A DNA stretch of 64,000 nt, taken from the NCBI RefSeq assembly GCF_044647545.1, contig NZ_CP172818.1, one strand, 5' to 3'. The position numbers and the translations under genes were made by a program. The DNA is from Escherichia coli. Lineage in GTDB: Bacteria; Pseudomonadota; Gammaproteobacteria; Enterobacterales; Enterobacteriaceae. Positions 8,743-57,284 of this stretch are shown here, one piece after another. Under the pieces are notes generated by a model, which was not told where the DNA came from, made no database searches, and was given only the letters and a program-made list of their open reading frames with translations. Position 1 is the first letter of the stretch, and each line of letters begins with the position of its first letter.

Positions 8743-8970
8743 GCCGAGTCCTTTGTGCGAGGAAAAATATCAGTATGGCCTGGTGATGGGAAAAAGGGCA
8801 GAAAATGTTGATGGTTTGTTACTTCCCAATAAATCACATATTTATCATGGTGATATAAATATTTTCCTAATTGTTCTTATCTGACAGATATCTCACTTAA
8901 GGCTTTCTTATAAATCTGTAGGGTTTCGCCTGTCAGCAGACAAATAACCCGATAAAACAAGGATGAGCAG

Positions 8971-14597: not shown

Positions 14598-14638
14598 CGT
14601 GAGTTGCCTATGCACAGTGGGGTATTCCCGCCGGCACG

Positions 14639-15148
14639 GTGCAGATGCTCGATCGGCTGGAAAGTGAAATCCTGGCTGACCGGGTGAGTGAGGAAAGCCG
14701 CCGCTGGCTGGCATCGTGCGGCCTGACGGTGGAGCAGATGCAAAACCAGATGGACCCGGTGTTCACGCCGGCGCGAAAAATCCACCTGTACCACTGCGAC
14801 CATCGCGGCCTGCCGCTGGCCCTTATCAGCAAGGAAGGGACAACAGAATGGTACGCAGAATATGATGAATGGGGCAACCTGCTGAATGAAGAGAACCCGC
14901 ACCAGCTGCAACAGCTCATCCGCCTGCCGGGTCAGCAGTATGATGAGGAGTCCGGCCTGTATTACAACCGCCACCGCTATTATGACCCGCTGCAGGGGCG
15001 GTATATCACTCAGGATCCGATTGGGCTGAAGGGGGGATGGAATTTTTATCAGTATCCGTTGAATCCGATGACAACGGTTGATCCTCTTGGATTAAAATTT
15101 AAGGTAGAAGGTGACGGTCAGCTTTTGATTCTGCAATTGAATATTTGA
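14639..15148 (+). pseudogene. yibJ: Orphan Rhs core-end fragment (yibJ/rhsJ-like) with a truncated C-terminal tip
   Basis: GTG-initiated 169-aa ORF duplicating the last 150 residues or so of the rhsA core ([12 protein letters not shown]...[27 protein letters not shown]), then only 17 residues before the stop; no upstream core. Confidence 0.65.
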
Positions 15149-15209
15149 AACAAGATGATGAGATGAAAAAAAATAATTACGGCCCTTGAAAAGGATAAAC
15201 ACACTATAG

Positions 15210-15536
15210 TGGTTAGTTGTAATAATAATTATGATACACTCATTTAATCGATGGACAATGAGAATACACTGGGATCCTAAAGCTGCTCTATTGTGTACGG
15301 GTGTACAGAAAGATGGTAATTTTGATTTTAAAAATGACAATCTTGAGCCTGTAGTAGCATTAGGTCATGAAATAGCCCATGCAGAGGCTTATTAAATGAA
15401 GAATTCAGTGTTTATATGAAGCGAGTAAATACACCTGATCCTATATATGATAACGCAGAGGAAAGAAGAGTAATAACAGGTATTGAGAAACATGTTGCAC
15501 AAACATTAAAACAATGTGTTAGAAAAAACCACGGGG
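15210..15536 (+). pseudogene. Decayed remnant of a putative HExxH-motif toxin domain (two short frames separated by a frameshift)
   Basis: Frame 1 (about 15210-15396) translates ...WDPKAALLCTGVQKDGNFDFKNDNLEPVVALGHEIAHAEAY*; a second frame (about 15411-15536) gives MKRVNTPDPIYDNAEERRVITGIEKHVAQTLKQCVRKNHGE*. Read by eye; no ORF of 60 aa or more. Confidence 0.3.
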
Positions 15537-17284
15537 AATAATTTACCATGTACCTTAACAATATACGGTTGTAGTTGCTATATTTGTAAAGAGATTACCC
15601 CATCGAACCGGAATAAATGAAAATGACTATATTTTATGAGTTACTATCATCATTGAACAATCAGCATATAAGATAACCTCACCAAAAGCAGTTTAAACCA
15701 TGGTAAGTTGTAGAAGTGGGACATCTCGGCACCCCATTTTTTGTATGAAAAGTTACGAGAAATATATATTTTAATTTTTTTTTATATTATATATTAACCA
15801 AAATTAAAAAAACAACAATTTAAATAAAAAATTATTTATTACTTATATATTAACAATATCATAATAAATTCATTAAAACCGCTAGTTATAAATAATTATA
15901 AAAAAATCACAAATTGTTAAAATTTAATATTAATTATTTTAAAACAACCTAATGATATAAGATGGGGATTTATAGATCTAAGTGAAAGAGCTTGTTACTA
16001 TATTTTTATTTTTCTTTTGTTCCGGTGATTTGAATGGTATTAGTATGTTGAAAAAAATAGAAAAAAAGTGGAGGGGTCTAAGCCATAATATATCATTAGT
16101 GAAGAAAAGATGATGCATAAACTGAAATATAATATGGCAAAAAAGAATTCAAAGGCATCATTCTACTCCTGACTATTTTTCACATTTCCTCGAAGTTAAA
16201 TTGAAAATACGAGACGCAATATTAAAATTATACAAATGAATTCCAGAAAATCACGTAACGCTGCTTTTTTTACTAAACAATTCCATTTTATGTTTAAAAA
16301 TTAGATATCTATTAGAAGCTGTTTTTTATTGTTATAGATCATCAAAAATACTCCTTATAATAAAAGAACAAAATTGATTAAAAAATTGAAAATATTTATT
16401 ATCCATTACAACAATAAAAAATAAATTATATATTCTATTTGACTATTGGTTATTTCGTAGATGGTTGGGAAATATAACGATTATTGGAAAGATCAGCATC
16501 TCGGGATTTTTACAAGCAATATTGATTTTGAAAAGGGTATTCCTTTTCACGATACCATTCCAGATTTACCTGTATCAGATCTTGCATAATTTCACGAGAG
16601 CTTTATTAATTGGATGTGACATTCTCAGATGAAATAAAGCGTCATATTGTATGGAAACGATTTATACAAATCCCCAAATATTATTATGTAAAAATTTATC
16701 AAATAGAAATCAGACAGATGCGAAATCCAATGAGATCAAACAGCTACAAATTTAAAAATATTAAAAAAAATCATCACAAACGTATTAAAAATAAAAAATA
16801 CAAAAACATATTATTTATCTTAAAAGAAATCACCTAAATAAACCTAGAAAAATCATAAAATTAAATAACAAAATACATACCAATTATGAAAAATCACCAA
16901 AAAAATCTCTCACATTCATTCTATGAATTATTATTTCACTAATAAATCTAAAATCATTGCATCTCTCTCAATAATACAAACAAAAAAAAAAAAACGTCAA
17001 TATAATCATTCTTATTTAACCAAAGCTTCCACACAATCGAAACAGCACGGAAATAAGCCGCACTGGCGTCGACGCGGTAATGAATGAAGACGACTGCAAA
17101 ATAAGAAGAATCCGTAAACAGCAGAATTAGTTCTCAGGATACCGCACACGCTAGTAATATACGAATGATAAGTATTCAAGGCAGTGCTAAGACGTAATAT
17201 CGGTAACTTTTCCCGCCGCAGGGGCGGTATATCACTCAGGATCCGATTGGGCTGAAGGGGGGATGGAATTTTTATCAGTATCCG

Positions 17285-17758
17285 TTGAATCCGATAACTG
17301 ATATTGACCCGTTGGGATTAGCGACCTGTTTATACAGCATAACTTTAGGTATGCTTTCATGCGTTTCAGATACGTCAAGTGATGATAATTCTTATGGTGT
17401 GCTTACTATTTCAGTCGCCTCTGGTAATAATGGTAATAATATGCAATGTAAAAATAATCCTGGTTGTACACACTTACAAAATAGAGGCCCAATACCTCAA
17501 GGGGTATGGAGCTGGAATGTTAATGGTCCTGGAGCAACTAATAGAAAACCTAATGGTATACGTTTAGTACCGTCAGCAAATACAGAAACGTATAATCGTG
17601 ATGGATTTTTAACACATAGTTGTTTAAACGCTTTTGGTCCATCTTTAGGACCTCGATTCTGTTCCGAGGGGTGTATAACTGGTTCATCTAATGACATGCA
17701 AAAATTAAATGAGCTAATATTTTCAGAGCCAGATAGCACATTAACAGTGACGGACTAG
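17285..17758 (+). CDS. Orphan Rhs C-terminal toxin module; putative L,D-transpeptidase-like (YkuD/Tlde1-like) toxin domain
   Basis: Rhs core-end homology resumes at about 17213 ([36 protein letters not shown]); in-frame stop at 17204-17206 and no ATG before the TTG at 17285. The tip contains RGPIPQGVW and H-x15-SEGCI ([24 protein letters not shown]), resembling the LD-transpeptidase catalytic His/Cys signature. Confidence 0.6.
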
Positions 17759-17762
17759 AAAT

Positions 17763-18284
17763 ATGGCAAGGTTATTAACAATTGTGCTTTTTTTCTCTAT
17801 TTCTGCGAATGCAGTTACTGTAAACCAATTTCAGAGAGAGTTGGATTTGGCAGACAAGGCAATATTATGGGCACTAATATCAGCCAGTACCCAAGAGGGA
17901 CGAAAAGCGTGTTCACTTAGCTATTTTTCATGTAAAGCCGCAGAGGCTGAACTCGGACTGGCATATATGGCTGCTAATGATAACAAGGCATTTCTCACAT
18001 CCTTATCTAGAATAATGATGTACAAAATAGATGCTGGACTTTCCGAATCCTATACATGCTATTTATTAAGCAAGGGAAAGATCATAAGACCATATCTGAA
18101 GAATCTAAATCCACACCAACTTGTCGCTGATTGCATTGAAACTGTAAATAAAATAAAAGATAAAAATAAAAAAATCATTGATATAGATTCAGTTAATATT
18201 TGCAATGATAATAAAAATATAAATTGGAGAGTTAATAGTACTATTGTAGCCATTGATGATTCTATAAAATGCATCGATGAATAA
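17763..18284 (+). CDS. Putative secreted (periplasmic) immunity protein paired with the upstream orphan Rhs toxin
   Basis: 173-aa ORF starting 5 bp after the toxin stop; N-terminal signal-peptide-like segment MARLLTIVLFFSISANA followed by a Cys-containing soluble domain; AT-rich like the toxin tip. Confidence 0.5.
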   Translation: MARLLTIVLFFSISANAVTVNQFQRELDLADKAILWALISASTQEGRKACSLSYFSCKAAEAELGLAYMAANDNKAFLTSLSRIMMYKIDAGLSESYTCYLLSKGKIIRPYLKNLNPHQLVADCIETVNKIKDKNKKIIDIDSVNICNDNKNINWRVNSTIVAIDDSIKCIDE

Positions 18285-18741
18285 TAACTTAATTATATTT
18301 AAAAATATATTAATAACTCACTCTCCAGGAGTTTTTTTAACTTAGTGTTATAATGAATACGATAATTAAAAGTGAAGAGAAAAATAGTTGTATACATATA
18401 TTCCATGAACCTACATTGTGATCTATAAATTAAATATTTTTAAATGTGACTATCATCCTTCAGATAATAAAGCCATCATCGCAATAGATGGAAAAGCACT
18501 CCTGCTCTTTTTTGATTAGAGCCGTGGCAGAGGAACAACTCATATCATCATTGCGATCTCGACAATGTATAGTCTGATCCTTCGGCAGATCAAGACGGAT
18601 AAAAAATCCAATGAGTTCACACTCATCCCGAACTTCTTAACATAATGGATATTAACGAAAAATCATCACAGCCGATGAAATAATATGCAAAAATAATTAG
18701 TCCTTGCAGGGAGCAAAGTTCCATAATCTCCCCCGCCCCCC

Positions 18742-19878
18742 TCAATGATCCAAATAAAGATAATGCATCCAACTGGTCATTCTTAGCAGCACCTTCCGCA
18801 TCACCGAAACATGGCTGAAATGGTCGGAGTAAACTGCTACCTGGGCGTAAATGCCGTCGGGTAAGGCATCGATATCATCGTTAGGGTCCAGTTCAATGGT
18901 TCCCAGCACACCGTCCGTGCCGGGTACGACGGTTAATGATTGCAGTACCCCTTGCGCCTGATACGAACCGCCTGGCACGACAGGTAAAATACTAGTCAGT
19001 TTGCCGTGGAACACCTGCCCAGGTAGCGCGTTAAACACCACTTCCGCATCATCGCCGGGTTTCAGACGTAACAGCGAGTTCTGCCGAAATTGGGCGACAA
19101 TTTGCCGTTTTTGCTCGGGGATGAAAACCATCACCGGACGCAACGGCAAGGCAGCTGCGTATGTACCTGGGCGGATCAGTACCTGAGTAACGTAGCCATT
19201 GCTTGGTGCGCGAATGACAGTCTGCTCAAGGTTATATTTTGCTTCAGTAAGTTGCGCTCTTAAGCTCACAATCTGCGACTGCTCGCCGTTAACCATACTG
19301 TCGAGCTGGCTCTGGATCTGCGCCTGCTCCGCCACCGAGCCTTTCACCAGCGCGTCCTGCGCGAGGAAGTTTTGCCGCGCATCGTCGATGTCACGTTCCG
19401 AGAACGGATTCACTGCCGCCTGGCTGCCTTTCAGGTAACGTTGATAATTTTTAAACAGGCGGTCGCGCTCCGCTGAAACCTGGGTGGTGTTGGCCTGCGC
19501 TTCAGTGAGCTGCGCGCGCAGCGTCTTTATATTATGCGTCGCCGTCATCAGGTCAGCCTGAAGTCTGTCAACTCGCGCCTGGTAACGAACCGGGTCGAGC
19601 TTAAAAAGCACCTCGCCCTTCTGAATAAGCTGATTATTTTTGTCGGTGACTTCAGTAACAATTCCCGTCACCTGTGGCGTGATGGGGATCGCTATCACTG
19701 CCTTTTGCGCGGTAAAAGTGTAAGGGTGGTTGTAGTTCATCAACAAAATCAAACCACTCACCAGAAACACGCCTCCCAGCGCCGCCGTCGCCAGCGTCCA
19801 CTGATTTACCGGAATGCGGAAGATTTTAAAGACCGCCCACGCCAGCGCCACGTAAGTTAAAACAATCAATAGATCCAT
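18742..19878 (-). CDS. yibH: HlyD-family membrane fusion protein
   Basis: 378-aa ORF with N-terminal TM helix, long coiled-coil (RLQADL...LRAQLTEAQ) and C-terminal beta-barrel typical of HlyD/EmrA periplasmic adaptors. Confidence 0.85.
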
Positions 19879-19880
19879 AT

Positions 19881-20243
19881 TTAGATCTCCGGGAACGTGG
19901 AATAGTCAGTCTTTTTCTCGGCGGCGAGTTGATGCTCCAGCCGGGAAATTCGGTCAGAAAGTGCGGCGATTTCCGGGTCAGTCGCTTTCTCCTGCGACGC
20001 AACATGTGACTGCATACCCCAGCCACGCTCCGGTTGATAGAGCGTCGCCCAGATCCACAGGAACGGCCAGATAACATGCAGAGTAAACAGGCTCACCCAG
20101 CCCGCTGTATGAATAGCGTCGGCATGGGGGTGATTACGCTTTTTGGCAATCAGATAAGGGATGTCATGTATCGCGATGATTCCATAAAAAATCACCAGAA
20201 AGACGAAGATCAGCACTCCCAACGCGAAGTAGTTTAGAAACAT
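19881..20243 (-). CDS. yibI: DUF3302 inner-membrane protein
   Basis: 120-aa product from the ATG at 20243 ([45 protein letters not shown]...); the track ORF extends upstream to 20345. Confidence 0.85.
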
Positions 20244-22786: not shown

Positions 22787-23935
22787 ATGAAAGCATTACA
22801 TTTTGGCGCAGGTAATATCGGTCGTGGCTTTATCGGTAAACTGCTGGCAGACGCGGGTATCCAACTGACGTTTGCCGATGTCAATCAGGTGGTACTTGAT
22901 GCCCTGAATGCCCGTCATAGCTATCAGGTTCATGTGGTTGGTGAAACCGAGCAGGTAGATACCGTTTCCGGCGTCAATGCTGTCAGCAGCATTGGTGATG
23001 ATGTCGTTGATCTGATTGCTCAGGTTGATTTAGTCACTACCGCCGTGGGCCCGGTTGTGCTGGAACGTATTGCCCCGGCAATCGCCAAAGGGCTGGTGAA
23101 ACGTAAAGAACAAGGTAATGAATCCCCGCTGAACATCATCGCTTGTGAAAACATGGTCCGCGGCACCACACAGCTGAAAGGACATGTGATGAACGCCCTG
23201 CCGGAAGATGCCAAAGCGTGGGTAGAAGAACACGTTGGCTTTGTTGATTCCGCCGTTGACCGCATCGTGCCGCCTTCGGCTTCTGCAACCAACGATCCGC
23301 TGGAAGTGACGGTAGAAACATTCAGCGAATGGATTGTTGATAAAACCCAGTTCAAAGGCGCGCTGCCGAACATCCCAGGCATGGAGTTAACCGACAACCT
23401 GATGGCATTTGTTGAGCGTAAACTCTTCACCCTGAATACAGGTCATGCTATAACCGCGTACCTCGGAAAACTGGCCGGTCATCAGACCATTCGTGATGCG
23501 ATTCTCGACGAGAAAATCCGCGCGGTGGTAAAAGGTGCGATGGAAGAAAGTGGTGCAGTATTGATCAAGCGCTACGGCTTTGACGCAGACAAACATGCGG
23601 CGTACATCCGGAAAATCCTCGGTCGTTTCGAGAACCCGTACCTGAAAGATGATGTAGAGCGCGTAGGCCGTCAGCCGCTGCGTAAACTGAGTGCTGGCGA
23701 CCGTCTAATCAAGCCACTGCTCGGAACGCTGGAATATGGTCTGCCACATAAAAACCTGATTGAAGGTATTGCCGCTGCAATGCACTTCCGCAGTGAAGAT
23801 GATCCGCAGGCTCAGGAACTGGCAGCACTGATCGCTGACAAAGGTCCGCAGGCGGCGCTGGCACAGATTTCCGGTCTTGATGCCAACAGCGAGGTTGTAT
23901 CCGAGGCGGTAACCGCTTATAAAGCAATGCAATAA
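22787..23935 (+). CDS. mtlD: Mannitol-1-phosphate 5-dehydrogenase
   Basis: 382-aa product from the ATG at 22787 ([20 protein letters not shown]...), Rossmann GxGxxG motif. Confidence 0.95.
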
Positions 23936-25759: not shown

Positions 25760-27415
25760 ATGAATCTCTGGCAACAAAACTACGATCCCGCCGGGAATAT
25801 CTGGCTTTCCAGCCTGATAGCATCGCTTCCCATCCTGTTTTTCTTCTTTGCGCTGATTAAGCTCAAACTGAAAGGATACGTCGCCGCCTCATGGACGGTG
25901 GCAATCGCCCTTGCCGTGGCTTTGCTGTTCTATAAAATGCCGGTCGCTAACGCGCTGGCCTCGGTGGTTTATGGCTTCTTCTACGGGTTGTGGCCCATCG
26001 CGTGGATCATTATTGCGGCAGTGTTCGTCTATAAGATCTCGGTGAAAACCGGGCAGTTTGACATCATCCGCTCGTCTATTCTTTCGATAACCCCTGACCA
26101 GCGCCTGCAAATGCTGATCGTCGGTTTCTGTTTCGGCGCTTTCCTTGAAGGAGCCGCAGGCTTTGGCGCACCGGTAGCAATTACCGCCGCATTGCTGGTC
26201 GGTCTGGGCTTTAAACCACTCTACGCCGCCGGACTGTGCCTGATTGTTAACACCGCACCAGTGGCATTTGGCGCGATGGGTATTCCGATTCTGGTCGCCG
26301 GGCAGGTAACAGGCATCGACAGCTTTGAGATTGGTCAGATGGTGGGGCGTCAGCTGCCGTTTATGACCATTATCGTGCTGTTCTGGATCATGGCGATTAT
26401 GGACGGTTGGCGCGGTATCAAAGAGACGTGGCCTGCGGTCGTGGTTGCAGGTGGTTCGTTTGCCATTGCTCAATACCTCAGCTCTAACTTCATTGGGCCG
26501 GAACTGCCAGACATTATCTCTTCGCTGGTATCACTGCTCTGCCTGACGCTGTTCCTCAAACGCTGGCAACCAGTGCGCGTATTCCGCTTCGGTGACTTGG
26601 GGGCGTCACAGGTTGATATGACGCTGGCTCACACAGGTTACACGGCAGGTCAGGTGCTGCGCGCCTGGACACCGTTTCTGTTCCTGACCGCCACCGTAAC
26701 GCTGTGGAGTATCCCGCCGTTTAAAGCCCTGTTCGCTTCAGGCGGTGCGCTGTATGAGTGGGTGATCAACATTCCGGTGCCGTACCTCGATAAACTGGTT
26801 GCCCGTATGCCGCCAGTGGTCAGCGAAGCGACAGCGTATGCCGCCGTGTTTAAGTTTGACTGGTTCTCTGCCACCGGTACCGCCATTCTGTTTGCTGCCC
26901 TGCTCTCGATTGTCTGGCTGAAGATGAAACCATCTGACGCTATCAGCACCTTCGGCAGCACGCTGAAAGAACTGGCTCTGCCCATCTACTCCATCGGTAT
27001 GGTGCTGGCATTCGCCTTTATCTCGAACTATTCCGGTTTGTCATCAACACTGGCGCTGGCACTGGCGCACACCGGTCATGCATTCACCTTCTTCTCGCCG
27101 TTCCTCGGCTGGCTTGGTGTCTTCCTGACCGGATCGGATACCTCATCTAACGCCCTGTTCGCCGCCCTGCAAGCCACTGCAGCACAACAAATTGGCGTTT
27201 CTGACCTGTTGCTGGTTGCTGCCAACACCACCGGTGGTGTCACCGGCAAAATGATCTCTCCGCAATCTATCGCTATCGCCTGTGCGGCGGTAGGCCTGGT
27301 GGGCAAAGAGTCTGATTTGTTCCGCTTTACTGTCAAACACAGCCTGATCTTCACCTGTATGGTGGGCGTGATCACCACGCTTCAGGCCTATGTCTTAACG
27401 TGGATGATTCCTTAA
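25760..27415 (+). CDS. lldP: L-lactate permease
   Basis: 551-aa product from the ATG at 25760 ([30 protein letters not shown]...), multi-TM lactate permease family. Confidence 0.95.
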
Positions 27416-43932: not shown

Positions 43933-45192
43933 ATGCTAACATCCTTTAAACTTCATTCATTGAAACCTTACACTCTGAAATCATCAATGATTTTAGAGAT
44001 AATAACTTATATATTATGTTTTTTTTCAATGATAATTGCATTCGTCGATAATACTTTCAGCATAAAAATATATAATATCACTGCTATAGTTTGCTTATTG
44101 TCACTAATTTTACGTGGCAGACAAGAAAATTATAATATAAAAAACCTTATTCTTCCCCTTTCTATATTTTTAATAGGCTTGCTTGATTTAATTTGGTATT
44201 CTGCGTTTAAAGTAGATAATTCGCCATTTCGTGCTACTTACCATAGTTATTTAAATACTGCCAAAATATTTATATTTGGTTCTTTTATTGTTTTCTTGAC
44301 ACTAACTAGCCAGCTAAAATCAAAAAAAGAGAGTGTATTATACACTTTGTATTCTCTGTCATTTCTAATTGCTGGATATGCAATGTATATTAATAGCATT
44401 CATGAAAATGACCGCATTTCTTTTGGTGTAGGAACGGCAACAGGAGCAGCATATTCAACAATGCTAATAGGGATAGTTAGTGGCGTTGCGATTCTTTATA
44501 CTAAGAAAAATCATCCTTTTTTATTTTTATTAAATAGTTGCGCGGTACTTTATGTTCTGGCGCTAACACAAACCAGAGCAACCCTACTCCTGTTCCCTAT
44601 AATTTGTGTTGCTGCATTAATAGCTTATTATAATAAATCACCCAAGAAATTCACTTCCTCTATTGTTCTACTAATTGCTATATTAGCTAGCATTGTTATT
44701 ATATTTAATAAACCAATACAGAATCGCTATAATGAAGCATTAAATGACTTAAACAGTTATACCAATGCTAATAGTGTTACTTCCCTAGGTGCAAGACTGG
44801 CAATGTACGAAATTGGTTTAAATATATTCATAAAGTCACCTTTTTCATTTAGATCAGCAGAGTCACGCGCTGAAAGTATGAATTTGTTAGTTGCAGAACA
44901 CAATAGGCTAAGAGGGGCATTGGAGTTTTCTAACGTACATCTACATAATGAGATAATTGAAGCAGGGTCACTGAAAGGTCTGATGGGAATTTTTTCCACA
45001 CTTTTCCTCTATTTTTCACTATTTTATATAGCATATAAAAAACGAGCTTTGGGTTTGTTGATATTAACGCTTGGCATTGTGGGGATTGGACTCAGTGATG
45101 TGATCATATGGGCACGCAGCATTCCAATTATCATTATATCCGCTATAGTCCTCTTACTCGTCATTAATAATCGTAACAATACAATTAATTAA
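43933..45192 (+). CDS. waaL: O-antigen ligase (K-12 type)
   Basis: 419-aa polytopic membrane ORF (MLTSFKLHSLKPYTLKSSMILEIITYILCFF...), AT-rich. Confidence 0.9.
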   Translation: MLTSFKLHSLKPYTLKSSMILEIITYILCFFSMIIAFVDNTFSIKIYNITAIVCLLSLILRGRQENYNIKNLILPLSIFLIGLLDLIWYSAFKVDNSPFRATYHSYLNTAKIFIFGSFIVFLTLTSQLKSKKESVLYTLYSLSFLIAGYAMYINSIHENDRISFGVGTATGAAYSTMLIGIVSGVAILYTKKNHPFLFLLNSCAVLYVLALTQTRATLLLFPIICVAALIAYYNKSPKKFTSSIVLLIAILASIVIIFNKPIQNRYNEALNDLNSYTNANSVTSLGARLAMYEIGLNIFIKSPFSFRSAESRAESMNLLVAEHNRLRGALEFSNVHLHNEIIEAGSLKGLMGIFSTLFLYFSLFYIAYKKRALGLLILTLGIVGIGLSDVIIWARSIPIIIISAIVLLLVINNRNNTIN

Positions 45193-45223
45193 GAATAAAC
45201 AAGTTTAAGAAGTGAGTTAAAAC

Positions 45224-46297
45224 TCACTTCTTATCTATACAACTTAATCTCTTTACTGAATTAGTTAAAGTTTCAGTATCGATATCTTTTACCGTATATG
45301 TTGGGGATACTATTTGTATAGATTTATGATGATTCGGGGACCAAATTAAATGCGAGGGATATTCCGGAGTACGTGAATTAGGGTAAAATGCAAGCGTTGG
45401 TTTATGATAAGCCGCAGCGATATGAACAAGAGCTGTATCAACAGAAATGACAAAATCACTATACTTGGTCAACGCAACGGTATAAATAAACTCATCAAAT
45501 GGTAGTGTTTCGATTTCAAGTATTGGTATTGTCAATAAATCTTGCGGTAACCCGGTAAATATAATCCGATAATTTTCAAAGTGTGTTTTCACTTCTTGAT
45601 ATATAACTTTTATTTGCTCAAACGTAAGACGGCATATTTTTTTTGCACCTAATGGATTAATAATGACTATTCTTGTATCTCCAATAAATTCTTTTATTTT
45701 ATCTTCAACATCTACTGGTAAATGCAAGTCGTAGTTGGTGGAAAATTTACCCTCACCATAAATATGCTTCAGTATTTCTATTGCTCGTGTACTCATATGT
45801 TCTTTTAAACATTCATCGTGGGGATGGTAAAATGAATAGTAACGCTTATACCAATGATCAAAACCCAGAATGTAAGAATCTTTTAAACTTGATAATATTA
45901 AGCTATGCTTAAATGAGGGCATAGTTTCAAAGGGGTCTAATACAATATCGAACTGTAAATCCCGCAGATGCTTACATAGAGTAAGCATTTCAAGAAAACC
46001 GGTTGATTCTTTAATACAGAACTCAAATATATTTTTATTATTAGAGAGAAATTCCCCACCCTTTCTATTTGTGAGAAGAGTTATTTTAACCCCTTTACTA
46101 TAAAGTTCACGATAAATCGAACTTAATACAATTAGATCACCAAGTTTATTATTATCATGAATAATAAGGCATGATTTAACTTGTGCTGGATCTGTAATTT
46201 GATTATTTATTTTATTACGAAATAAAAAAGAAAGGAAATTAATCTTGATTTTGTTTATATAAAATCTTTTCTTTTTGTGAAAAGTTCCTAAGCGCAT
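45224..46297 (-). CDS. waaU: LPS core heptosyltransferase IV (WaaU/RfaK)
   Basis: 357-aa GT9-family ORF; position in the K-12 core cluster. Confidence 0.85.
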   Translation of the reverse strand: MRLGTFHKKKRFYINKIKINFLSFLFRNKINNQITDPAQVKSCLIIHDNNKLGDLIVLSSIYRELYSKGVKITLLTNRKGGEFLSNNKNIFEFCIKESTGFLEMLTLCKHLRDLQFDIVLDPFETMPSFKHSLILSSLKDSYILGFDHWYKRYYSFYHPHDECLKEHMSTRAIEILKHIYGEGKFSTNYDLHLPVDVEDKIKEFIGDTRIVIINPLGAKKICRLTFEQIKVIYQEVKTHFENYRIIFTGLPQDLLTIPILEIETLPFDEFIYTVALTKYSDFVISVDTALVHIAAAYHKPTLAFYPNSRTPEYPSHLIWSPNHHKSIQIVSPTYTVKDIDTETLTNSVKRLSCIDKK

Positions 46298-46329
46298 TTT
46301 TATACCATATTATTTTAGTTTCAGGATGA

Positions 46330-47181
46330 TTAATTAGCATAAGAATCGGTTGAAGTTCTATATTGCATTTTTTTTCTTGTCATATCTTTTGATTCTTCTG
46401 CACTGATGTCTTGAAGTTTAATAAATGGAATTACATCGTAAGAAATAGCTGTATCATCTGATAAATTATAAATATTAATATCTTTTACATTATCATGCAT
46501 AAAACGAAAAAATGGCAATATTTTGAATAAATCCCTACTTAATTCCGAGGGCATGGGATTTTTATTCTCATCATAGAAACGAGAACAGCTACCCGTTAAA
46601 TCAAGACCAGAACAAATAATCCGCGCATACTTAAGTGAATATGCGATTTGAATTGCAGCAAAGGCAATAGTATGGCATGAGCAATAACCAAGACTAATGT
46701 CCTTGCAAAATCCAACCAGACGACCTTTTTTAGACAACGGTACAGAGATCAGCAGTTCTTTGTGAATCTGTCTCAAAATATTAAATTTAATCTTCTTTAT
46801 AAAACCACCTTTTTCCCGACGGTAAAAGGACCGTAATACGAGGCAGTTCTGGAGGATATAAAGTTTATCTTCTTTGGAAGCGTGTTCATAAACGTCAACG
46901 TTTACTATGGTATAACGACTTCTCTGGCTAAATTTATAAAAATCATCACGACGCTGATGTAAAAATCGGACATCTGTAAGTACATATATAAAAGGAACGA
47001 TATTATTACTTAACAGATATTGCGCAGAACCATTGACAGCAATAATATCCTTTGTTCGTAATACTGACAAAGGTGTTTTTTGCGATGTAGGGCCCGAAAG
47101 AAAAATAATAACATCATCAGATATTTTATTTTCAATCAGGTTTTCAACATCTTTTTTGTCAATGTATCTAATATTCTTCAT
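46330..47181 (-). CDS. waaZ: LPS core biosynthesis protein WaaZ (KdoIII-related)
   Basis: 283-aa ORF (MKNIRYIDKKDVENLIENKISDDVIIFLSGPTSQ...); K-12 core-type gene. Confidence 0.8.
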   Translation of the reverse strand: MKNIRYIDKKDVENLIENKISDDVIIFLSGPTSQKTPLSVLRTKDIIAVNGSAQYLLSNNIVPFIYVLTDVRFLHQRRDDFYKFSQRSRYTIVNVDVYEHASKEDKLYILQNCLVLRSFYRREKGGFIKKIKFNILRQIHKELLISVPLSKKGRLVGFCKDISLGYCSCHTIAFAAIQIAYSLKYARIICSGLDLTGSCSRFYDENKNPMPSELSRDLFKILPFFRFMHDNVKDINIYNLSDDTAISYDVIPFIKLQDISAEESKDMTRKKMQYRTSTDSYAN

Positions 47182-47251
47182 GATAAACCTGTGAAATAAA
47201 TAACTCCGCTTAAAACTGTCCTGGTGAAGACATGTAATTGTGGGATTTTTT

Positions 47252-47950
47252 TTAGCGCGCTGGTTTCCCTTTCAAACGCCGCATAAAATTGCGCATTTTT
47301 TTACGATATACTAAAAGATAATAGCCTAGATCTCTAATCTCATTTTTAATACCGTAATGACGCTCTAAGTCAATACGATCTTTCGCTTTACGCTGCGCTG
47401 AAGCACGCTTTCCGGAGAGATCGATAATTCGAACCTCACCATTTTTTATAATGAAGTTACCACGATGGGGGTCGCCAGAAACCATGCCATGTTGATGTAA
47501 GGCATTAATTGATTGCTGAATTTTATTTTTTAGCGCATCATCAATATCGGGCATATCACACAACTCTATGCCATCAATATACTCGATGATCATGATATAA
47601 GTATGGACAAAACGTAAGGTTTTCCGTTCAGCCAATAAATAAAAGTCATTGAGTGTATTTAACCCTTCATTTCGTACTTTTTGGGTTTGCTCAAAAAGGC
47701 GTTCGTAATAATCACCTTTTAACAGAGACTTAAAGAAACGTTCGTTACGCTTAACTTTCGGAGAAAAAACCTTAAGAATCAATTTACCGTAATCGGTATC
47801 AATAAGCATAACTTTTGTATCATCAATAGAACGAAAAACCTTGATGATATTTATATTATAAGACAAGAAGTCATTTAATACATTGAGGTACTTTGAATTG
47901 TTTTCATCGGTAAAAACAACCAAGTCTTTGATCTTGCTCTTCTGAATCAT
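47252..47950 (-). CDS. waaY: LPS core heptose II kinase WaaY
   Basis: 232-aa ORF (MIQKSKIKDLVVFTDENNSKYLNVLNDF...), WaaP-like kinase fold. Confidence 0.85.
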   Translation of the reverse strand: MIQKSKIKDLVVFTDENNSKYLNVLNDFLSYNINIIKVFRSIDDTKVMLIDTDYGKLILKVFSPKVKRNERFFKSLLKGDYYERLFEQTQKVRNEGLNTLNDFYLLAERKTLRFVHTYIMIIEYIDGIELCDMPDIDDALKNKIQQSINALHQHGMVSGDPHRGNFIIKNGEVRIIDLSGKRASAQRKAKDRIDLERHYGIKNEIRDLGYYLLVYRKKMRNFMRRLKGKPAR

Positions 47951-47967
47951 AATAAACCAGTTAAATG

Positions 47968-48984
47968 TTATTTACGGTAATATTTTCGGCAAAGATAACA
48001 GACTCCTGCTATAATTCCTGAGATATAATGATGTTGCACTAAAAGATGTTTATATCTTTTTTTAAATTCAATAATTGATTTCGCATCTCGTGGAGAGTCA
48101 TCTTTCCAGGGGGAATTTTCTAAAGCTATTTTATAGTATTTTACCGATGGATAAATTGCCCATTTGTGCCACGGTTTAGTTGCACCTGTATAATGAATAA
48201 GAAGAGTACTTTCTGTAATCAGCTTTTTATAGTTTTGATGTGTTTTGTCTTTTAATTCACTTTTAATTGTATAAATTGTATTGTACTCACGAGGCAAAAA
48301 TAATGTCATCCCTTTCAGTAAGACATTCATAACATCCTGATCAGGGTATTTATAAACATTATCTTTACTCATAAGAATAGACAACGCTTTTTCTGTTAGT
48401 TTTGCGTCAGCCCATTTTTTTAAGTCTAAATAAACGACACCGGAATTAAAGTACTGCCCAAGTAATTCAGGATCAGACAACCTGGATACCGCCTTTTCTT
48501 GCATTGGCTCAACATCTTTAACAACAGCAGCAACCGCTCCATTTAAACCCAGATGTAATAGTTGGCTAATATCGCCTTTACAAACAACATCTGCATCAAG
48601 ATAAAGCAAACGATCAAGCGTTAAACCCAATAATTGAAATGCAAATAAACGGAAGTACATTGCTCTTGACCAGACCTGTGTACAAGGCAAGCACTGGAGC
48701 TTATCAGTGTTAATTCTATATAACGTGATTCTTAATTGGTTTTGCTCTGCAAGCTTTGCAATTTTTTGAAAAAAACCATCATTATAAACATCAGCAATAA
48801 TATAAAAATCAAGATTAATATGTCGATTATTTAGGACAATTGATGTGATGGAAACACCTACACCATCAAGATAATTAGCATCGACACCATAGGCAACATT
48901 TAAACATTCAGAAGTATTTATATTAGCTAGCCGAAAATCCCAGGCTTTAACTTTATCTATCTCTATGGCAGGAAATGAGTCCAC
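47968..48984 (-). CDS. waaJ: LPS 1,2-glucosyltransferase (WaaJ/WaaR, GT8)
   Basis: 338-aa GT8 ORF with a DxD motif. Confidence 0.85.
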   Translation of the reverse strand: MDSFPAIEIDKVKAWDFRLANINTSECLNVAYGVDANYLDGVGVSITSIVLNNRHINLDFYIIADVYNDGFFQKIAKLAEQNQLRITLYRINTDKLQCLPCTQVWSRAMYFRLFAFQLLGLTLDRLLYLDADVVCKGDISQLLHLGLNGAVAAVVKDVEPMQEKAVSRLSDPELLGQYFNSGVVYLDLKKWADAKLTEKALSILMSKDNVYKYPDQDVMNVLLKGMTLFLPREYNTIYTIKSELKDKTHQNYKKLITESTLLIHYTGATKPWHKWAIYPSVKYYKIALENSPWKDDSPRDAKSIIEFKKRYKHLLVQHHYISGIIAGVCYLCRKYYRK

Positions 48985-49023
48985 AATGCTACCCTTATAT
49001 CATTACTTTATAGTTTCCCAGTT

Positions 49024-50043
49024 TTAATGCTTTATCTTTTCAATAAAATAAAAAAGATAGTTGCTAAATCCTTTTAGATATCTATGCTTTTTAAGCATAT
49101 GTTTTGCGCTATATCTTAATTGATTGCTATTGTTCGGTTTCAGCAACGCCGTATTCTTCCATGGCGAAGCATTTTTTGCCTCCATAAAGGCTTGTGATAC
49201 AGGATAATCCCAGGCCCAATCATGCCAGGGCTTGGTTGGCCCGATATAATGGATAAAAATAGTATCGTTGGTTACTGGGTTTATAAAGCTTTCTTTGAGT
49301 TGATAATTTAAGCTGAACTGGGTGTTATATTTAATATCAGCGAAAATAAGTTTATCCGCCAGCAACATATTTAACACATCCTGATCAGGATGTGTTATTT
49401 TTTTGATTATTTCTGGCTCATTTAGCATTGCAATAGCTCGTGCAGAAACCTGCTGAGCCGCCCATTGGGCAGTATTAATCAATAAAAAACCGGAGTTAAA
49501 GTAACCTTTAGCAATTCCCGCAACACCTAACGAATGGGCGCGTTTTTCCCACCAGTCAGCTTGCCCTTCTGTAACAACCATTGCGACTTTATCGTCAGGA
49601 AATGAGAAATTAATTAGTGGCTCAATAGTCCCCTGACAAATGATATCTGCATCCAGATAAAGGACTTTAGGCGCCTTATTAATAAAGTAATCTGCAATAA
49701 CAAAACGAAAATATATTGCATGAGTCCAATTCTTAGTGCTAGGCAATGAGCGCAGTCGATCACCATTAATCAGATATATTTTAATTCTGGTTTTATACTG
49801 CAACGCCAGGGCATCAAAATACTTACGATCATCATCACCAAAATAATCAGTAAAAATATGGAAACACAATCGACTTCCTTCATTATATTTTAATATTGAA
49901 GCAATCGAAATTCCGCAACCAAATAGAAAGTTTTTGTCAGTTCCATAAGCGATGTCCAGACAAAGATTTTCTGTTTCTACTTTATGATCATAATCAATAA
50001 CTGAATTAAGAAACTCAGTTTCCTGGAAAAACACCTGCTGCAT
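49024..50043 (-). CDS. waaO: LPS 1,3-glucosyltransferase (WaaO/WaaI, GT8)
   Basis: 339-aa GT8 ORF paralogous to the preceding gene. Confidence 0.85.
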   Translation of the reverse strand: MQQVFFQETEFLNSVIDYDHKVETENLCLDIAYGTDKNFLFGCGISIASILKYNEGSRLCFHIFTDYFGDDDRKYFDALALQYKTRIKIYLINGDRLRSLPSTKNWTHAIYFRFVIADYFINKAPKVLYLDADIICQGTIEPLINFSFPDDKVAMVVTEGQADWWEKRAHSLGVAGIAKGYFNSGFLLINTAQWAAQQVSARAIAMLNEPEIIKKITHPDQDVLNMLLADKLIFADIKYNTQFSLNYQLKESFINPVTNDTIFIHYIGPTKPWHDWAWDYPVSQAFMEAKNASPWKNTALLKPNNSNQLRYSAKHMLKKHRYLKGFSNYLFYFIEKIKH

Positions 50044-51122
50044 TATTTCCTCCGGGAAATAGCAGAAATAATTACCTTATGTAATCTATCGTAATACTTC
50101 GATTGGTAAAATTCATCGATCGACGCAGGAATTTTTTCATGTTCGATATGAATTTCACCTGCTATATATTTATTTAGAAGAGTTACAAAACCAGCAATAT
50201 CTCCCGGTTGATACAGATGGCCATTGACATCAGGTTGAATAATGTCAGCAGGCCCGGAGACACAATCGGCACTGATACAAGGAATCCCCCACGACAAGGC
50301 TTCAAGTAGGGTCATTGGGAAACCTTCAAAAGATGACGTGAGCAATAACGCACTCACTTTTTCAATATCTTGCTGGACCAATTCCCAGGGATATTGTTGC
50401 CAACCATACCAGACAATTCGATCATCAATATTTAATTCTCTACCATAAGCCTGGCATTTTTCGAAATCGGAGCCATCACCCAATACATGGAGTTTCCAGT
50501 TACCTTTCGCTTGTGATAAGCCATCAAGCAGGTCTTTAACTCTTTTCTGGCCTTCAAATTTCATACGCCCAACATAAATAAACGTTGCCGTTTCACCTTC
50601 CTCGGGCGCGGGAATGACTGAGTCTTTAGTTTCGACGGGATTAAAAATAACATTTATCGTCGATTCTGCTACACCTCGATTAATCATTTGCTGTTTAATG
50701 CCAGAGCTGATTGCTAAATGATAGTCGGCACAGGTGATATATTCAGCATGTTTTTTGTGATCTAAAGAAAAATGTGGCCATGAAAATACTGGCATATCAA
50801 TTCCTGATTTTTTACGTGCTTTTGCGGCAAACAGGCAGGAGATCACATCAATACAAATAACGATATCTGGTTGGTACTCCTGAAGCCATTTACTTAGAGC
50901 ATGAATATGTTTCGCCCGACGCAAAAAACCTAAACGAATATTGGAAAATGAACATGAGTATTTAATACCTTCCAGCCATCCCTTATCCATTTTGTCATTA
51001 CGACAAAAGAAAAACATTTCACTTTGGATATGTTGTTGCCTGAAGGTAGTAATAACATCACGGATGACAGTTTCCATGCCGCCAAATCCAGAAACAGCTT
51101 CGCCGATAAACGCTATTTTCAT
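50043..51122 (-). CDS. waaB: LPS 1,6-galactosyltransferase WaaB
   Basis: 359-aa product from the ATG at 51122 (MKIAFIGEAVSGFGGMETVIRDVITTF...), GT4 fold. Confidence 0.85.
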   Translation of the reverse strand: MKIAFIGEAVSGFGGMETVIRDVITTFRQQHIQSEMFFFCRNDKMDKGWLEGIKYSCSFSNIRLGFLRRAKHIHALSKWLQEYQPDIVICIDVISCLFAAKARKKSGIDMPVFSWPHFSLDHKKHAEYITCADYHLAISSGIKQQMINRGVAESTINVIFNPVETKDSVIPAPEEGETATFIYVGRMKFEGQKRVKDLLDGLSQAKGNWKLHVLGDGSDFEKCQAYGRELNIDDRIVWYGWQQYPWELVQQDIEKVSALLLTSSFEGFPMTLLEALSWGIPCISADCVSGPADIIQPDVNGHLYQPGDIAGFVTLLNKYIAGEIHIEHEKIPASIDEFYQSKYYDRLHKVIISAISRRK

Positions 51123-51165
51123 AGAAACTCTCATTAATTGAGTAAAACTCACTGTTTTAACGGTT

Positions 51166-52101
51166 TTATTTGTCTATAAAATCAGAAACAATCGTTGACA
51201 TCATTTTATCTGGACTGAATTTATATAAACTATCATAATCCATTGGTTTAACAGATGAGTTAATAAAATACTCTAACTTATCCCAATCATCATGACCTAT
51301 TATAAAAAAGCGAGATTCACTATAGATTTCTGAACCAAATACATTTATATTATTAGTAATTAATTTTTTATTGAAAAATAGTGCCTCAAGTATACGAAGA
51401 GTCCAGCCAGATTGGTTTTCTTTGGTTATATCAACAATTATATTAGCATTTAATGTTCTTCTAATATTCTCTTCATAAGATATTTGTTTTTCAATCAAAT
51501 ACTTTGAAGTCGTAGATGATGTCTTATCTTTGACAACATTAAAATCTAGCTTACATCCTAGTGTTGTTAATCTCTCGGCTAACTCATTAATTATTTGAAG
51601 ACGCCCTTTATCACGACCAAGGAAAAAACATATTGGCTGGCTGTTATTTTTGTCAGATAAACTATAATTTCTAATTTCATCCATTCCTATAGGAAAAAAT
51701 TGTTCTATTGCCTTGATCTTTTCATTCCCTATAAATCTATGCTCAAAATCATATATAATATCGAAATAATTCGCGTTATCAAGAATAAAATCTTCGCCAA
51801 CAGTATTTCTTAGAAGCAAAACTTTATGACAGTTAATATTTTTTAATATTTGTTTATTGATACCTTTATTAACAACACTGTCATTAATGATAATTATGTC
51901 ATCTTTTTTAATATCATTGAGGTAATGCTTGATGAATAATCGCCCCAGCCATGCATTATCCATCCCTATTTTTGATATTTTTTTATTAATCCAGTTATAT
52001 TTTTTTGGTGTTGTTATATTTTTTATCTTGTACTTTTTTTTCAGGTACTGAATCATTTTTAATTCATAATCTGCAACCCAATTTATAAAATAAATAGTCA
52101 T
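51166..52101 (-). CDS. waaS: LPS core biosynthesis protein WaaS (rhamnosyltransferase-like)
   Basis: 311-aa AT-rich ORF ([33 protein letters not shown]...). Confidence 0.8.
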
Positions 52102-52137
52102 AATAAAGTTAGTTCCAGTACATACTAATAAATATTT

Positions 52138-52935
52138 TTATAATCCTTTGCGTTGTGTTCGCTCTTTAATACGCTCGGCCTTAACGCTTGCCATGTTCAA
52201 TAAATTCTGTTCAAGAGACAATATTTTGCGTAAAGGCATCCCAAAATACACTTTCATAAACCGCCAGATATCCCGCTGAGTCAGGCCGATATTCATCGAA
52301 GAAAAATAAAGCCCAATAAGATCTTTATCGCGCCAACGACGTGGAACGCGCGTGCGAAGCTGCGCCCGGTGCAGGTCAATTACTGAAATTTTTAACTCCT
52401 CTTCCTTACCGGAAAAAGGCAAGTGCAGCAGGAAATGACAGATATAACAGTCACGGTGGTTAATGCCCGCAGCATGCATATCGCGCACCATCGTCGCGAC
52501 ACGCTTAATAAGCATACGCTTTACGCGAACATCTGGTGGGTTGGTCGCCCAGTCAGCACAGTAATCTTCCAGACTGATGGTTGGTGTCAGATCTTCGGTA
52601 ATAATAAACGAGGTTCTGGTCAGCGGATTAATGCCTTTTTCGCCGAATGCCACCCCATACATAGTATCAACGCCGACATCCCGCAGTCGATGAATCGCAT
52701 TCCATTCGCGGTCTGCGCCTAATACTGGCATCCGCAATGAGAGTAAATTTTTGATTATCTCTTTCAGGGTCGTGCCGCGATGCCATTTGAGAAAATAGCT
52801 TTTGCCCGCCATTTCAAAGCGCAGAGTGCGGCGAGTTTCCAGTTCACGAAATACCTCACCCTGCAAGGTTTTAACTTCCTCAAAAGGATCTTTACCGCGC
52901 CATAACGTGGCAAACGGCTCTTTAAGTTCAACCAT
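52138..52935 (-). CDS. waaP: LPS core heptose I kinase WaaP
   Basis: 265-aa product ([40 protein letters not shown]...). Confidence 0.9.
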
Positions 52936-54052
52936 CCAGACCACCCGTTATGATGTCCGCTGCTTTCTCTGGCAGACTGTATAAATCTTGTGTATCAGCA
53001 TAATGTCGCGCATTTTCTGCCCAGGCCTGGCGCAATGAAGATTGCGTTAACGCTTTGCGTAAAATCTCATTCAATGTTTCCTGGCGGAATGGCTCAGCAA
53101 TAGCCTCGCCGCAATTGGCGTCAACAATATAATGCGCATAGCCACAAACGGCTGTTGTTAGTACCGGTAATCCTGCAGTAATCGCTTCCAGCAGCACAAT
53201 TCCCGCCGCTTCCTGGTAGGCAGGATGAAGTAATAAATCCGCCGCCGCCATTAATTCCGAGACATCGTTGCGCCCCGAGAAGAAGTGAACATTACTGCGC
53301 ACGCCGCGTTTTTCTGCCAGCGCCTCAAATTTTCGCGGTTTATCCTGCCCAACAACATATAGTAATGTGTTGTGGCGCAGCGAATCCGGTAACGAAGCAA
53401 GTGCTTCAATGGAACGATCGACACCTTTACGCGTGAAGTCTGAACCGACCTGCAACAATAAATATTGTTGTTCGGTTATTCCATTCTTCTTACGGAAGAT
53501 TTCACGGCTATTCGCTGGTTGCTGGCTATATTTACGATCAGGATAAATCCCCGGTGGCAGAATATGAAAACGCTCCGCTTCAGTCTGATAATGTTTCTGG
53601 AAATCGGCGATTTGCTTATCTGTCAGCATCAGCAGCTGTGTCGGCTTGCCCTGTTCGAAGGTTGCCCGCTCAAAGGCGGCATAATGGCGATAACGTGACG
53701 TCAGGCGATAGAAAAAGCCTTTCTCCTGCGCTACTTTCTCGGCATAACAAACATCAGCGGCATAATAAACGTCCAGCCCCGGCATTTTATTAAATCCAAC
53801 GACTCTATCGACGGGGTATTCACGTAAATGTTTTTGCACCCAGGCAAAATATTCCGCATTGCGCCCGTGATTGGTATGCGATTTAACCGGCACTTTGATC
53901 AGTTCAAATACATCAGGGCATTCGCCTTCCCACGACTGGGTATAAACCCGAACATGATGACCTCGGGCGGCAACTGTCTGAGCAATACGCATAAAATCGC
54001 GCTGCAAACCGCCAAAGGGAAAATATTTATATAAACAAAAAGCAACGATCAT
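52928..54052 (-). CDS. waaG: LPS glucosyltransferase I WaaG
   Basis: 374-aa GT4 ORF ([43 protein letters not shown]...). Confidence 0.9.
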
Positions 54053-55107
54053 AACGACGTACCTGTCGTGGAGGAGGGAAGTAATTTATCGACAGCTGCA
54101 ATGACATCTGCCGCCGGAATAACCGAAAGATACATCTCATTTCGGTCACGCTGATCGCGCGTTGGCATTTCCCGGTAATCTCCCGCCCAGAATTGAATCA
54201 TGTTATTTGACCAGGGACGCCAGAAAATATGGTCTGTCGCACCAAACAGCGATATCAGTGGCGTATTAACTGCAGCGGCAATATGCGCCGGTGCGGAATC
54301 AACGCCAATAAACAGCTGCGCATGATCGATTAACGCACCAAGTTCCGGGAAGGTCACCTTTCCGGCCAGTGCCGTTACTGGTGGCGTCTGGCATCCCTGC
54401 GCAATTTCATTGACGCAGGCCAGATCGTCTTTATCTGGGCCGGACGTCAGAACGACTTCATAACCACGAGCATGTAAGGCATCAATCACAGCGGAAAACT
54501 TGGCGTTGTCCCAGCATTTGAAGATTTGCCGCGCCGTAGGTTGGATAACCACATAATTTTGTCCAACACCAGCGTGATCAAGTTCGCGACGCATACGTTT
54601 CCAGCTTGCAGGCGGGTAACTCATGGTTGTCTGCTTCACCAACGATTCAAGTCCCAATGGCGTCAGCACGGATAAGTTACTTTCCACCACATTTCCACCC
54701 TGCAACGGCACCAAATGAGTGAAACTATTACGCCAAAAAGCAGACTGCCGATGATGATAATCCTGGGAAATTTTCACACGGGCATTTAATAAGCGAACCA
54801 GTATAGCAACCATCCATTGATCGGTAAGATTAACGATAAGGTCATACTTATTGGCACGTAATATCTTGATGAGATGGAAAAAGTTGGCAATTTTTTCTGA
54901 GGCTTTTGCTTTTTTATTTTTTATGCCGTAGAGCGCGTTAATCTCTGGATTTTCAGACAGGATCGGGATGGTGTCCTGATAAAGCAGCACATCGATTTTT
55001 GCGTCAGGGTAATTTTTTTTCAGCGAACTAATGACGGGAGTAGTTAATAACATATCCCCATGAAAACGCATCTTAATGAGCAAAATTCTTCGAAATGGCT
55101 TATCCAC
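54049..55107 (-). CDS. waaQ: LPS heptosyltransferase III WaaQ
   Basis: GT9-family ORF; the track start is the GTG at 55107 (352 aa). A TTG at 55083 would give the 344-aa length I recall for K-12 WaaQ, so the start is uncertain. Confidence 0.85.
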   Translation of the reverse strand: MDKPFRRILLIKMRFHGDMLLTTPVISSLKKNYPDAKIDVLLYQDTIPILSENPEINALYGIKNKKAKASEKIANFFHLIKILRANKYDLIVNLTDQWMVAILVRLLNARVKISQDYHHRQSAFWRNSFTHLVPLQGGNVVESNLSVLTPLGLESLVKQTTMSYPPASWKRMRRELDHAGVGQNYVVIQPTARQIFKCWDNAKFSAVIDALHARGYEVVLTSGPDKDDLACVNEIAQGCQTPPVTALAGKVTFPELGALIDHAQLFIGVDSAPAHIAAAVNTPLISLFGATDHIFWRPWSNNMIQFWAGDYREMPTRDQRDRNEMYLSVIPAADVIAAVDKLLPSSTTGTSL

Positions 55108-55156
55108 AAGTAACTCTTTTTGTTGAGATTATCCGATTAAGGTGAAGCAGAAAAAG

Positions 55157-55168
55157 CACGCTACCGCC
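55157..55168 (-). promoter_or_regulatory. ops element (GGCGGTAGCGTG) of the JUMPstart sequence in the waaQ operon leader; RfaH recruitment site
   Basis: Reverse complement of 55157-55168 is ggcggtagcgtg, located about 50-60 nt upstream of the waaQ start on the coding strand. Confidence 0.75.
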
Positions 55169-55519
55169 CCAGGCTCAACAGCTACCTGAATACTGATACC
55201 GCACTGATATTGACGCGCTAGTGTATCACTTCTTTCGCGGCAATCCGACCCGAATGATTTTTAAGCACATTGTTGATTTTCAATAAAGAAATCAATCAAA
55301 TAAAATCATTAGCAACCATATTCTTTTACTGTTGCTCTGCGATTCCTTCCTGCACGTACTGCAGAAATCAATGAATCGCATAAAAATACAAAAAAAGTAT
55401 AGATGTTCAGCAAGAATTGGCGGGTAAATTGCTATTTAAGTCAAAAACGGGAAAAGTAATGGTAAAGCCACAGCTAAATACATAGAATCCCCAGCACATC
55501 CATAAGTCAGCTATTTACT

Positions 55520-57284
<1,765 letters not shown>

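Follow-up and report, generated by a model that had tools for sequence, protein, structure and literature searches.

A very probable canonical JUMPstart/ops signal for RfaH in the leader of the waaQ (rfaQ) operon of Escherichia coli

Leader signals that make RNA polymerase resistant to termination over a long operon are known from lambda nut/N, put RNA, rrn boxA/Nus and the targets of LoaP and other NusG paralogues. The nut, put and boxA signals act as RNA; the ops element has a like outcome and differs in acting as non-template DNA. RfaH, a fold-switching, ribosome-recruiting NusG paralogue, reads this DNA in single-stranded form within the paused complex (PMC5995543). The sequence of ops conforms to the consensus pause; all validated E. 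coli targets have in common the TG at positions 11-12 that induces pausing, and the pause gives RfaH more time to load. Recruitment of RfaH by the non-template ops strand is established structurally: the protein contacts residues 4-7, the strand forms a small hairpin with C3:G8 as its closing pair, and T6 is turned out into a pocket of RfaH (PMC5995543). In wild-type strain CFT073, RfaH ChIP-seq signal was reported at four loci, rfa among them, where it runs from the single leader ops onward through the unit; when rfaH was deleted, polymerase occupancy was near background toward the end of the unit (PMC9765446). For wzx, kps and rfa the RfaH-dependent traveling ratio was 0.1-0.34 or less and ops lies 40-67 nt from the start codon, and all RfaH targets of CFT073 are coated by H-NS/StpA; K-12 is cited as having two RfaH-bound operons (PMC9765446). 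The refolded C-terminal domain of RfaH was described to bring S10 and the ribosome to genes without a canonical ribosome-binding site, and waaQ is described as such a gene (PMC6358824, PMC8745692). The ops of the waaQ leader counts among the founding examples of RfaH control; the factor takes its name from the rfa genes. It is a textbook RfaH site that is already known, and its description here is no discovery.

The leader described here lies in a 64-kb stretch of E. coli DNA (the whole stretch that was analysed, hereafter the window). Very probably it carries the canonical JUMPstart/ops signal of an E. coli-type waaQ (rfaQ) operon leader, acting by RfaH loading. The observations made on the window itself are the anatomy of the signal, its strand, position, family and conservation, and the base composition of the operon. 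The genes and the spacer between them are as follows.

54049-55107, minus strand: waaQ (rfaQ), heptosyltransferase III, 352 aa, GTG start, first gene of the operon (ORF and PGAP)
45224-54052, minus strand: waaG, waaP, waaS, waaB, waaO, waaJ, waaY, waaZ and waaU, K-12-type outer core (ORFs and K-12 colinearity)
45224-46297, minus strand: waaU, last gene of the operon
55520-56797, plus strand: waaA (kdtA), Kdo transferase, divergent, followed by coaD
55108-55519: waaQ-waaA divergent intergenic region, 412 bp (ORFs and annotation of identical genomes)

The waaQ-waaU transcription unit comprises about 10 genes in about 9.9 kb and has one ops. Judged by K-12 map distances, the rfaH gene would lie beyond the window. 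DNA identical to positions 54900-55800 is present in many complete E. coli genomes, in which PGAP calls rfaQ (waaQ) and waaA. An earlier note on this DNA had described a divergent region of roughly 410 bp between these two genes, with the exact 12-mer on the waaQ coding strand at 55157-55168; the spacer is indeed 412 bp long, the gene assignments are correct by ORFs and PGAP, and the 12-mer was found at that place by a search of the window. The distal genes of the operon together with waaL (44000-52000) have 29-40% G+C, against about 50-54% in the flanks, and this low G+C is in keeping with DNA that is exchanged horizontally and bound by H-NS, as has been described for RfaH targets. Because the ops lies 49 nt ahead of the GTG, is single, and is followed by distal genes of 29-40% G+C, the leader fits the picture drawn from CFT073.

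The start codon of waaQ is annotated differently in K-12, where the gene is read from an ATG (344 aa, position 55071 here); PGAP places the start at a GTG 12 codons upstream, also in K-12-type genomes. With the K-12-annotated ATG as the start, the spacer would be 448 bp. All 27 leaders compared, from several genera, have the GTG; the codon of the K-12-annotated ATG reads Leu in Pectobacterium and Serratia; and the residues RILLIK, encoded between GTG and ATG, fall on the N-terminal strand of WaaC and WaaF when WaaQ is aligned with these paralogues. For these three reasons the true start of waaQ is probably the GTG at 55107, and the K-12 annotation is probably 12 codons too short. Ahead of the GTG stands only a weak Shine-Dalgarno-like sequence, listed below, the counterpart of which (AAAGAG) is kept in most leaders and reads K-E in the upstream frame.

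The elements of the leader, all on the minus strand, are listed in the order in which they would be transcribed.

55220-55228, minus strand: candidate extended -10 TGATACACT, with TG at -15/-14 and TACACT at -12 to -7 (position relative to the K-12 rirA 5' end)
55213 (T), minus strand: putative transcription start of the waaQ mRNA and RirA, aligned with the 5' end of K-12 rirA (b4760) at 3808238
55142-55213, minus strand: RirA homologue, 72 nt (aligns locally over all 73 nt of K-12 rirA; 6 mismatches, one 1-nt gap)
55157-55195, minus strand: JUMPstart element, 39 nt, CAGTATTCAGGTAGCTGTTGAGCCTGGGGCGGTAGCGTG (Rfam RF01707)
55170-55188, minus strand: JUMPstart hairpin, 5-bp stem and 9-nt loop (Rfam structure line)
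55157-55168, minus strand: ops element GGCGGTAGCGTG, predicted transcript positions +46 to +57, non-template strand
55151-55155, minus strand: T5 tract immediately past ops and one C, candidate element
55114-55118, minus strand: weak Shine-Dalgarno-like AAGAG, 6 nt upstream of the GTG

The 64-kb window has one exact copy of the 12-mer GGCGGTAGCGTG, on the minus strand at 55157-55168, and this remains the single match when one mismatch is allowed. The minus strand is here the sense, non-template strand of waaQ and of the nine genes beyond it, as is required of ops, and the GTG start of waaQ lies 49 nt downstream. By homology to the K-12 5' end the site falls within the 5' leader, between promoter and first start codon. 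It agrees exactly with the 12-nt consensus GGCGGTAGnnTG, and all bases with an assigned role are present: G1 is at 55168, C3 at 55166, the loop bases G4-A7 at 55165-55162 (T6 at 55163), G8, which pairs with C3, at 55161, and the pause bases T11 and G12 at 55158 and 55157. The looser consensus GGCGGTAGNNTG also has this site as its sole match in the 64-kb window, against a mean of 0.07 matches in shuffles. Neither the 12-mer nor the core searches revealed a second ops within the waaQ-waaU unit. Three further copies of the 8-mer core GGCGGTAG are found in the 64-kb window, at 9016-9023 (plus), 23037-23044 (minus) and 27286-27293 (plus). They are without TG at positions 11-12 and without JUMPstart context and were ruled out as ops sites; the total of four, against 1.3 expected, is within chance.

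The ops forms the 3' end of a complete JUMPstart element. The match to RF01707 spans the full model (1-38), including the hairpin, with 55.2 bits (gathering score 35, E 2.5e-11); no other Rfam family attains its gathering score anywhere in the 64-kb window. A match to MIR5284, a plant microRNA family, was discarded as chance (21 bits against a gathering score of 93). The element lies directly upstream of a polysaccharide-synthesis cluster, the LPS core operon waaQ-waaU, as expected of a JUMPstart. In the hairpin, CAGGU (55188-55184) pairs with GCCUG (55174-55170), and one G separates the hairpin from ops. The 3' end of the hairpin precedes T11 (55158), the expected pause nucleotide, by 12 nt, a spacing that is typical of hairpin-stabilised pauses. 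The role of the JUMPstart RNA hairpin is left unexplained by the DNA-recognition model.

That the 12-mer is a functionless chance match is so improbable that it can be set aside. Unrelated copies of the 8-mer core do occur in the window at near chance expectation; the exact 12-mer, in contrast, is expected 0.0076 times per 64 kb on both strands and the looser consensus 0.07 times. The site also sits inside the full JUMPstart, on the correct strand and in the correct leader, and is invariant across diverged alleles and genera, a conservation by which the chance explanation is already refuted.

The leader shares with those of O-antigen (rfb/wb*), colanic acid and capsule (wzx, kps) and hlyCABD operons the same 12-nt ops, the 5-bp hairpin, the fixed spacing between them, the location in the 5' leader and the presence of one copy per transcription unit. 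It differs in the upstream half of the element, which reads CAGTGCAC-TGG...CCA in the rfb-type JUMPstart and CAGTATT-CAGG...CCTG in the waaQ type. The ops of hly lies about 600 nt from the start codon (PMC9765446), against 49 nt here. A T-tract after ops and a divergent waaA partner are specific to waaQ-type leaders. The closest described relative is the waaQ leader of K-12, which has the same waaQ/waaA locus and orientation, an identical 39-nt JUMPstart, ops, TACACT and TG extension, 45 nt from start to ops and 47-49 nt from ops to GTG. Unlike K-12, the window has 7 substitutions in the conserved island, a T5 tract in place of T6, and a wholly different central spacer.

The transcription start is placed by alignment with K-12. 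The MG1655 record contains a 73-nt ncRNA, rirA (b4760, 3808166-3808238), on the waaQ strand and directly upstream of the gene, which includes ops. Its homologue in the window is complete from end to end, ops included, and would form the first part of the waaQ 5' UTR, carrying both JUMPstart and ops. Because the K-12 rirA 5' end aligns to 55213, transcription is inferred to start there, with ops 45 nt further downstream (+46 to +57) and a 5' UTR of 106 nt to the GTG. The earlier note had considered a start site downstream of the 12-mer as evidence against its proposal; such an arrangement is contradicted, by homology, by the K-12 rirA/waaQ 5' end. The 5' end of RirA and waaQ was reportedly mapped by Klein et al. 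in 2016. In K-12, a Tn5 insertion at 3808201, between the rirA 5' end and ops, gave mucoid cells like insertions in waaG and waaQ (PMC11014345).

Just upstream of the putative start lies the extended -10, and no good -35 hexamer was found ahead of it. TACACT is present at the same distance in the waaQ leaders of E. albertii, Citrobacter, Pluralibacter, Cedecea, Shimwellia, Silvania and Intestinirhabdus, and Kosakonia has TACAAT at the same position. A generic promoter scan did not call the TGATACACT promoter; it yielded three sites where 1.9 are expected, which is not above chance. Two of the promoters proposed by the scan, TTGAAA-18-AATCAT at 55283-55254 (minus) and TTTTCA-18-TAAAAT at 55277-55306 (plus), lie in or beside the allele-specific spacer and were given no weight.

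RirA has itself been described as a regulator. According to three reviews, all from the one group that described it, RirA lies in the waaQ 5' UTR with ops and JUMPstart and has its 5' end and start in common with the waaQ mRNA; in K-12 it accumulates as a discrete RNA of about 73 nt, and when overexpressed it abolishes O-antigen incorporation, truncates the LPS core and lowers the amount of LPS, much as deletion of rfaH does, and it binds RfaH along with polymerase, which depends on ops (PMC6358824, PMC8745692, PMC5736990). On this ground the ops/JUMPstart copy might work mainly as RNA, a trans-acting RirA that titrates RfaH and so exerts negative feedback on LPS synthesis, and not as a DNA loading site. 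The annotation of the K-12 leader as ncRNA, the 72-nt homologue in the window and the compensatory variation of the JUMPstart stem, as expected of a structured RNA, agree with such a role. However, RfaH reads ops as non-template DNA in the paused complex (PMC5995543), the ops of the rfa leader is where the RfaH ChIP signal begins and polymerase occupancy of rfa needs RfaH (PMC9765446), and the effects of RirA were obtained by overexpression. As a replacement for DNA loading the RNA role is quite unlikely; it is compatible with the cis role, and since the latter was directly shown by ChIP, it is treated here as an addition. The leader thus has two described roles, as the cis loading site and as the source of an sRNA with a possible feedback on RfaH.

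Within E. coli, the intergenic region was found in 5424 of 5426 complete genomes and falls into two allele classes.

Window-type allele: 4468 records, at least 95% identity to the window
K-12-type allele: 946 records, 60-80% identity to the window

The window therefore carries the majority leader allele of E. coli and K-12 the minority one. At least 99% identity to the intergenic region of the window is found in 4432 records, and strain 536, which is close to CFT073, has 99.8%. Compared with K-12, the region and its neighbours are unevenly conserved.

55151-55263: waaQ-proximal block with promoter, start, JUMPstart and ops, 93.8% identity to K-12
55157-55195: JUMPstart, 39/39 identical to K-12, flanks diverged
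55264-55420: central spacer, allele-specific, 57.6% identity to K-12
55421-55519: waaA-proximal part, conserved, 90.9% identity to K-12
waaQ/waaG coding DNA: 65-80% identity to K-12

For the segment 55108-55150 the value of 60.5% against K-12 is an underestimate that reflects an ungapped 1-nt shift after the T-run. The island of promoter, JUMPstart and ops, conserved between more diverged sequences, appears as a clear footprint of constraint on the control elements.

The waa cluster of the window is a mosaic. Positions 43985-52234, with the outer-core genes waaL to waaS, are 100% identical to K-12 MG1655. From 52235 to about 55420 (the 3' part of waaP, waaG, waaQ, the leader and the central spacer) the identity to K-12 is 65-85%, and the DNA is a non-K-12 allele that is 99.2% identical to the R1-type strain SMS-3-5. 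One breakpoint falls within waaP, some 100 nt from its 3' end, and the other roughly 100 bp before waaA. The mosaic junction is present at 100% identity in none of the complete RefSeq E. coli genomes; the best match is 99.5%, in 3 strains. E. coli SW07163 (NZ_CM129852.1) has an IS1 in the waaQ-waaA spacer, about 70 bp upstream of the conserved promoter block, which takes the place of the waaA-proximal part of the match. At the other end of the window, positions 1-20000 contain multicopy, IS-like DNA, which matches a median of 18 sites in each E. coli genome and some 15,000 on plasmids. In the E. coli genome that matches best, near rhs, selAB and aldB, only 85% of the stretch is covered, at 95.7% identity; the DNA may come from an IS-rich Escherichia or Shigella lineage absent from the set of complete genomes.

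Beyond E. coli, a scan of species-representative genomes with the pattern GGTAGCTG-N3-5-GCCNGGGGCGGTAGCGTG returned at least 120 loci, nearly all from Enterobacterales. Among the 120 loci listed, 30 have a WaaQ homologue starting 39-66 nt after ops, and 19 of these 30 have a divergent waaA upstream. Among the waaQ-linked genera are Escherichia, Citrobacter, Pluralibacter, Kosakonia, Shimwellia, Cedecea, Silvania, Intestinirhabdus, Pectobacterium, Symbiopectobacterium and Serratia. The T-tract after ops is found in most waaA-divergent waaQ leaders of Enterobacteriaceae and is absent in Pectobacterium and Serratia. The variable pair of the JUMPstart stem is T-A in 76 of the 120 loci listed, A-T in 23, G-T in 10, T-T in 6, G-C in 4 and G-A in 1; in this set the free stem position is thus 94% pairable with four pair types, in agreement with the Rfam hairpin. 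Within waaQ leaders the pair is A-U in 12, U-A in 5, G-U in 4 and G-C in 2.

The minimum-free-energy fold of the 72-nt RNA (-19.3 kcal/mol) is one long irregular hairpin in the region 55151-55205 (minus), in which the stretch +47 to +59, made up of the ops RNA and two further bases, would pair with +9 to +22 around the enclosed JUMPstart hairpin, the long hairpin ending one base before UUUUU. Such a hairpin followed by U5 suggests an attenuator, in which unmodified polymerase would stall or stop past ops and give RirA, and RfaH-modified polymerase would pass. In 23 distinct waaQ leaders, 90.8% of cells are paired in the predicted hairpin, against 30-51% with slid partners, a figure that is inflated by the structure coming from one of the aligned sequences and by the 3' side being fixed by the search pattern. 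The changes in these 23 leaders are mostly one-sided and consistent with pairing (U-G to C-G, G-U to A-U), and a few are two-sided; the T-tract is kept in most enterobacterial waaQ leaders. Against an attenuator, the stability of the fold does not exceed that of shuffles (z -0.66 for the 72-nt RNA, +0.89 for 124 nt), the terminator scan of the leader found no terminator-like site, the annotated 3' end of RirA is about 14 nt past the stem and so beyond the usual release point of an intrinsic terminator, and Pectobacterium and Serratia have leaders without the T-tract. Since the folds are no more stable than shuffles, what is said here of leader structure is drawn from comparative counts only. 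The attenuator is on balance unlikely. In its fullest form, the leader would be an RNA switch in which polymerases missing RfaH stall or terminate past ops and release RirA, which titrates RfaH, and polymerases loaded with RfaH continue; this proposal is tentative and is likewise regarded as improbable. If it were true, the leader would be a self-measuring attenuator of RfaH availability, and the JUMPstart hairpin would gain a function.

The preferred reading remains RfaH loading at ops on the non-template strand, for which the start site, pausing, RfaH binding and dependence, and the activity of RirA are taken by analogy from work on K-12, on CFT073 or in vitro. RNA polymerase would start at about 55213 from the extended -10 promoter, move leftward and, after about 56 nt, pause on ops at the T11-G12 step (55158/55157). 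There, the non-template strand with GGCGGTAGCGTG, exposed in the bubble of the paused complex, would form the tiny C3:G8 hairpin and present G4-A7 with T6 flipped out. Autoinhibited RfaH would recognise this hairpin, its N-terminal domain clamping polymerase and its C-terminal domain refolding to a beta-barrel, and would then ride polymerase over the whole AT-rich operon of about 10 kb, from waaQ to waaU. While riding, RfaH is expected to exclude NusG and so blunt Rho termination, to suppress the backtracked pausing imposed by H-NS/StpA, and to recruit the ribosome via S10 to waaQ, with its weak Shine-Dalgarno sequence and its GTG 49 nt past ops. The first 72 nt or so of the waaQ transcript would be RirA, which in K-12, when overexpressed, binds RfaH and polymerase and dampens RfaH-dependent expression.

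The proposal of the earlier note, that the 12-mer is the RfaH-dependent signal of the long waaQ operon, is supported by the JUMPstart, by homology to the K-12 leader, and by the ChIP-seq and rfaH deletion results in CFT073 (PMC9765446). Three points are absent from that note: the leader is also annotated as an sRNA, RirA; the ops belongs to a larger, hairpin-bearing conserved element; and the action of RfaH exceeds classical antitermination, since it includes ribosome recruitment and the countering of H-NS.

Confirmation of the waaQ leader opens no long-standing question. For the annotation of the strain, the result is one RfaH-dependent unit in the 64-kb window, with its signal at 55157-55168. 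Its practical use lies in engineering or interpreting the LPS core of this strain, for which the leader must stay intact; it doubles as the RirA sRNA, and the true start of waaQ is probably the GTG at 55107.
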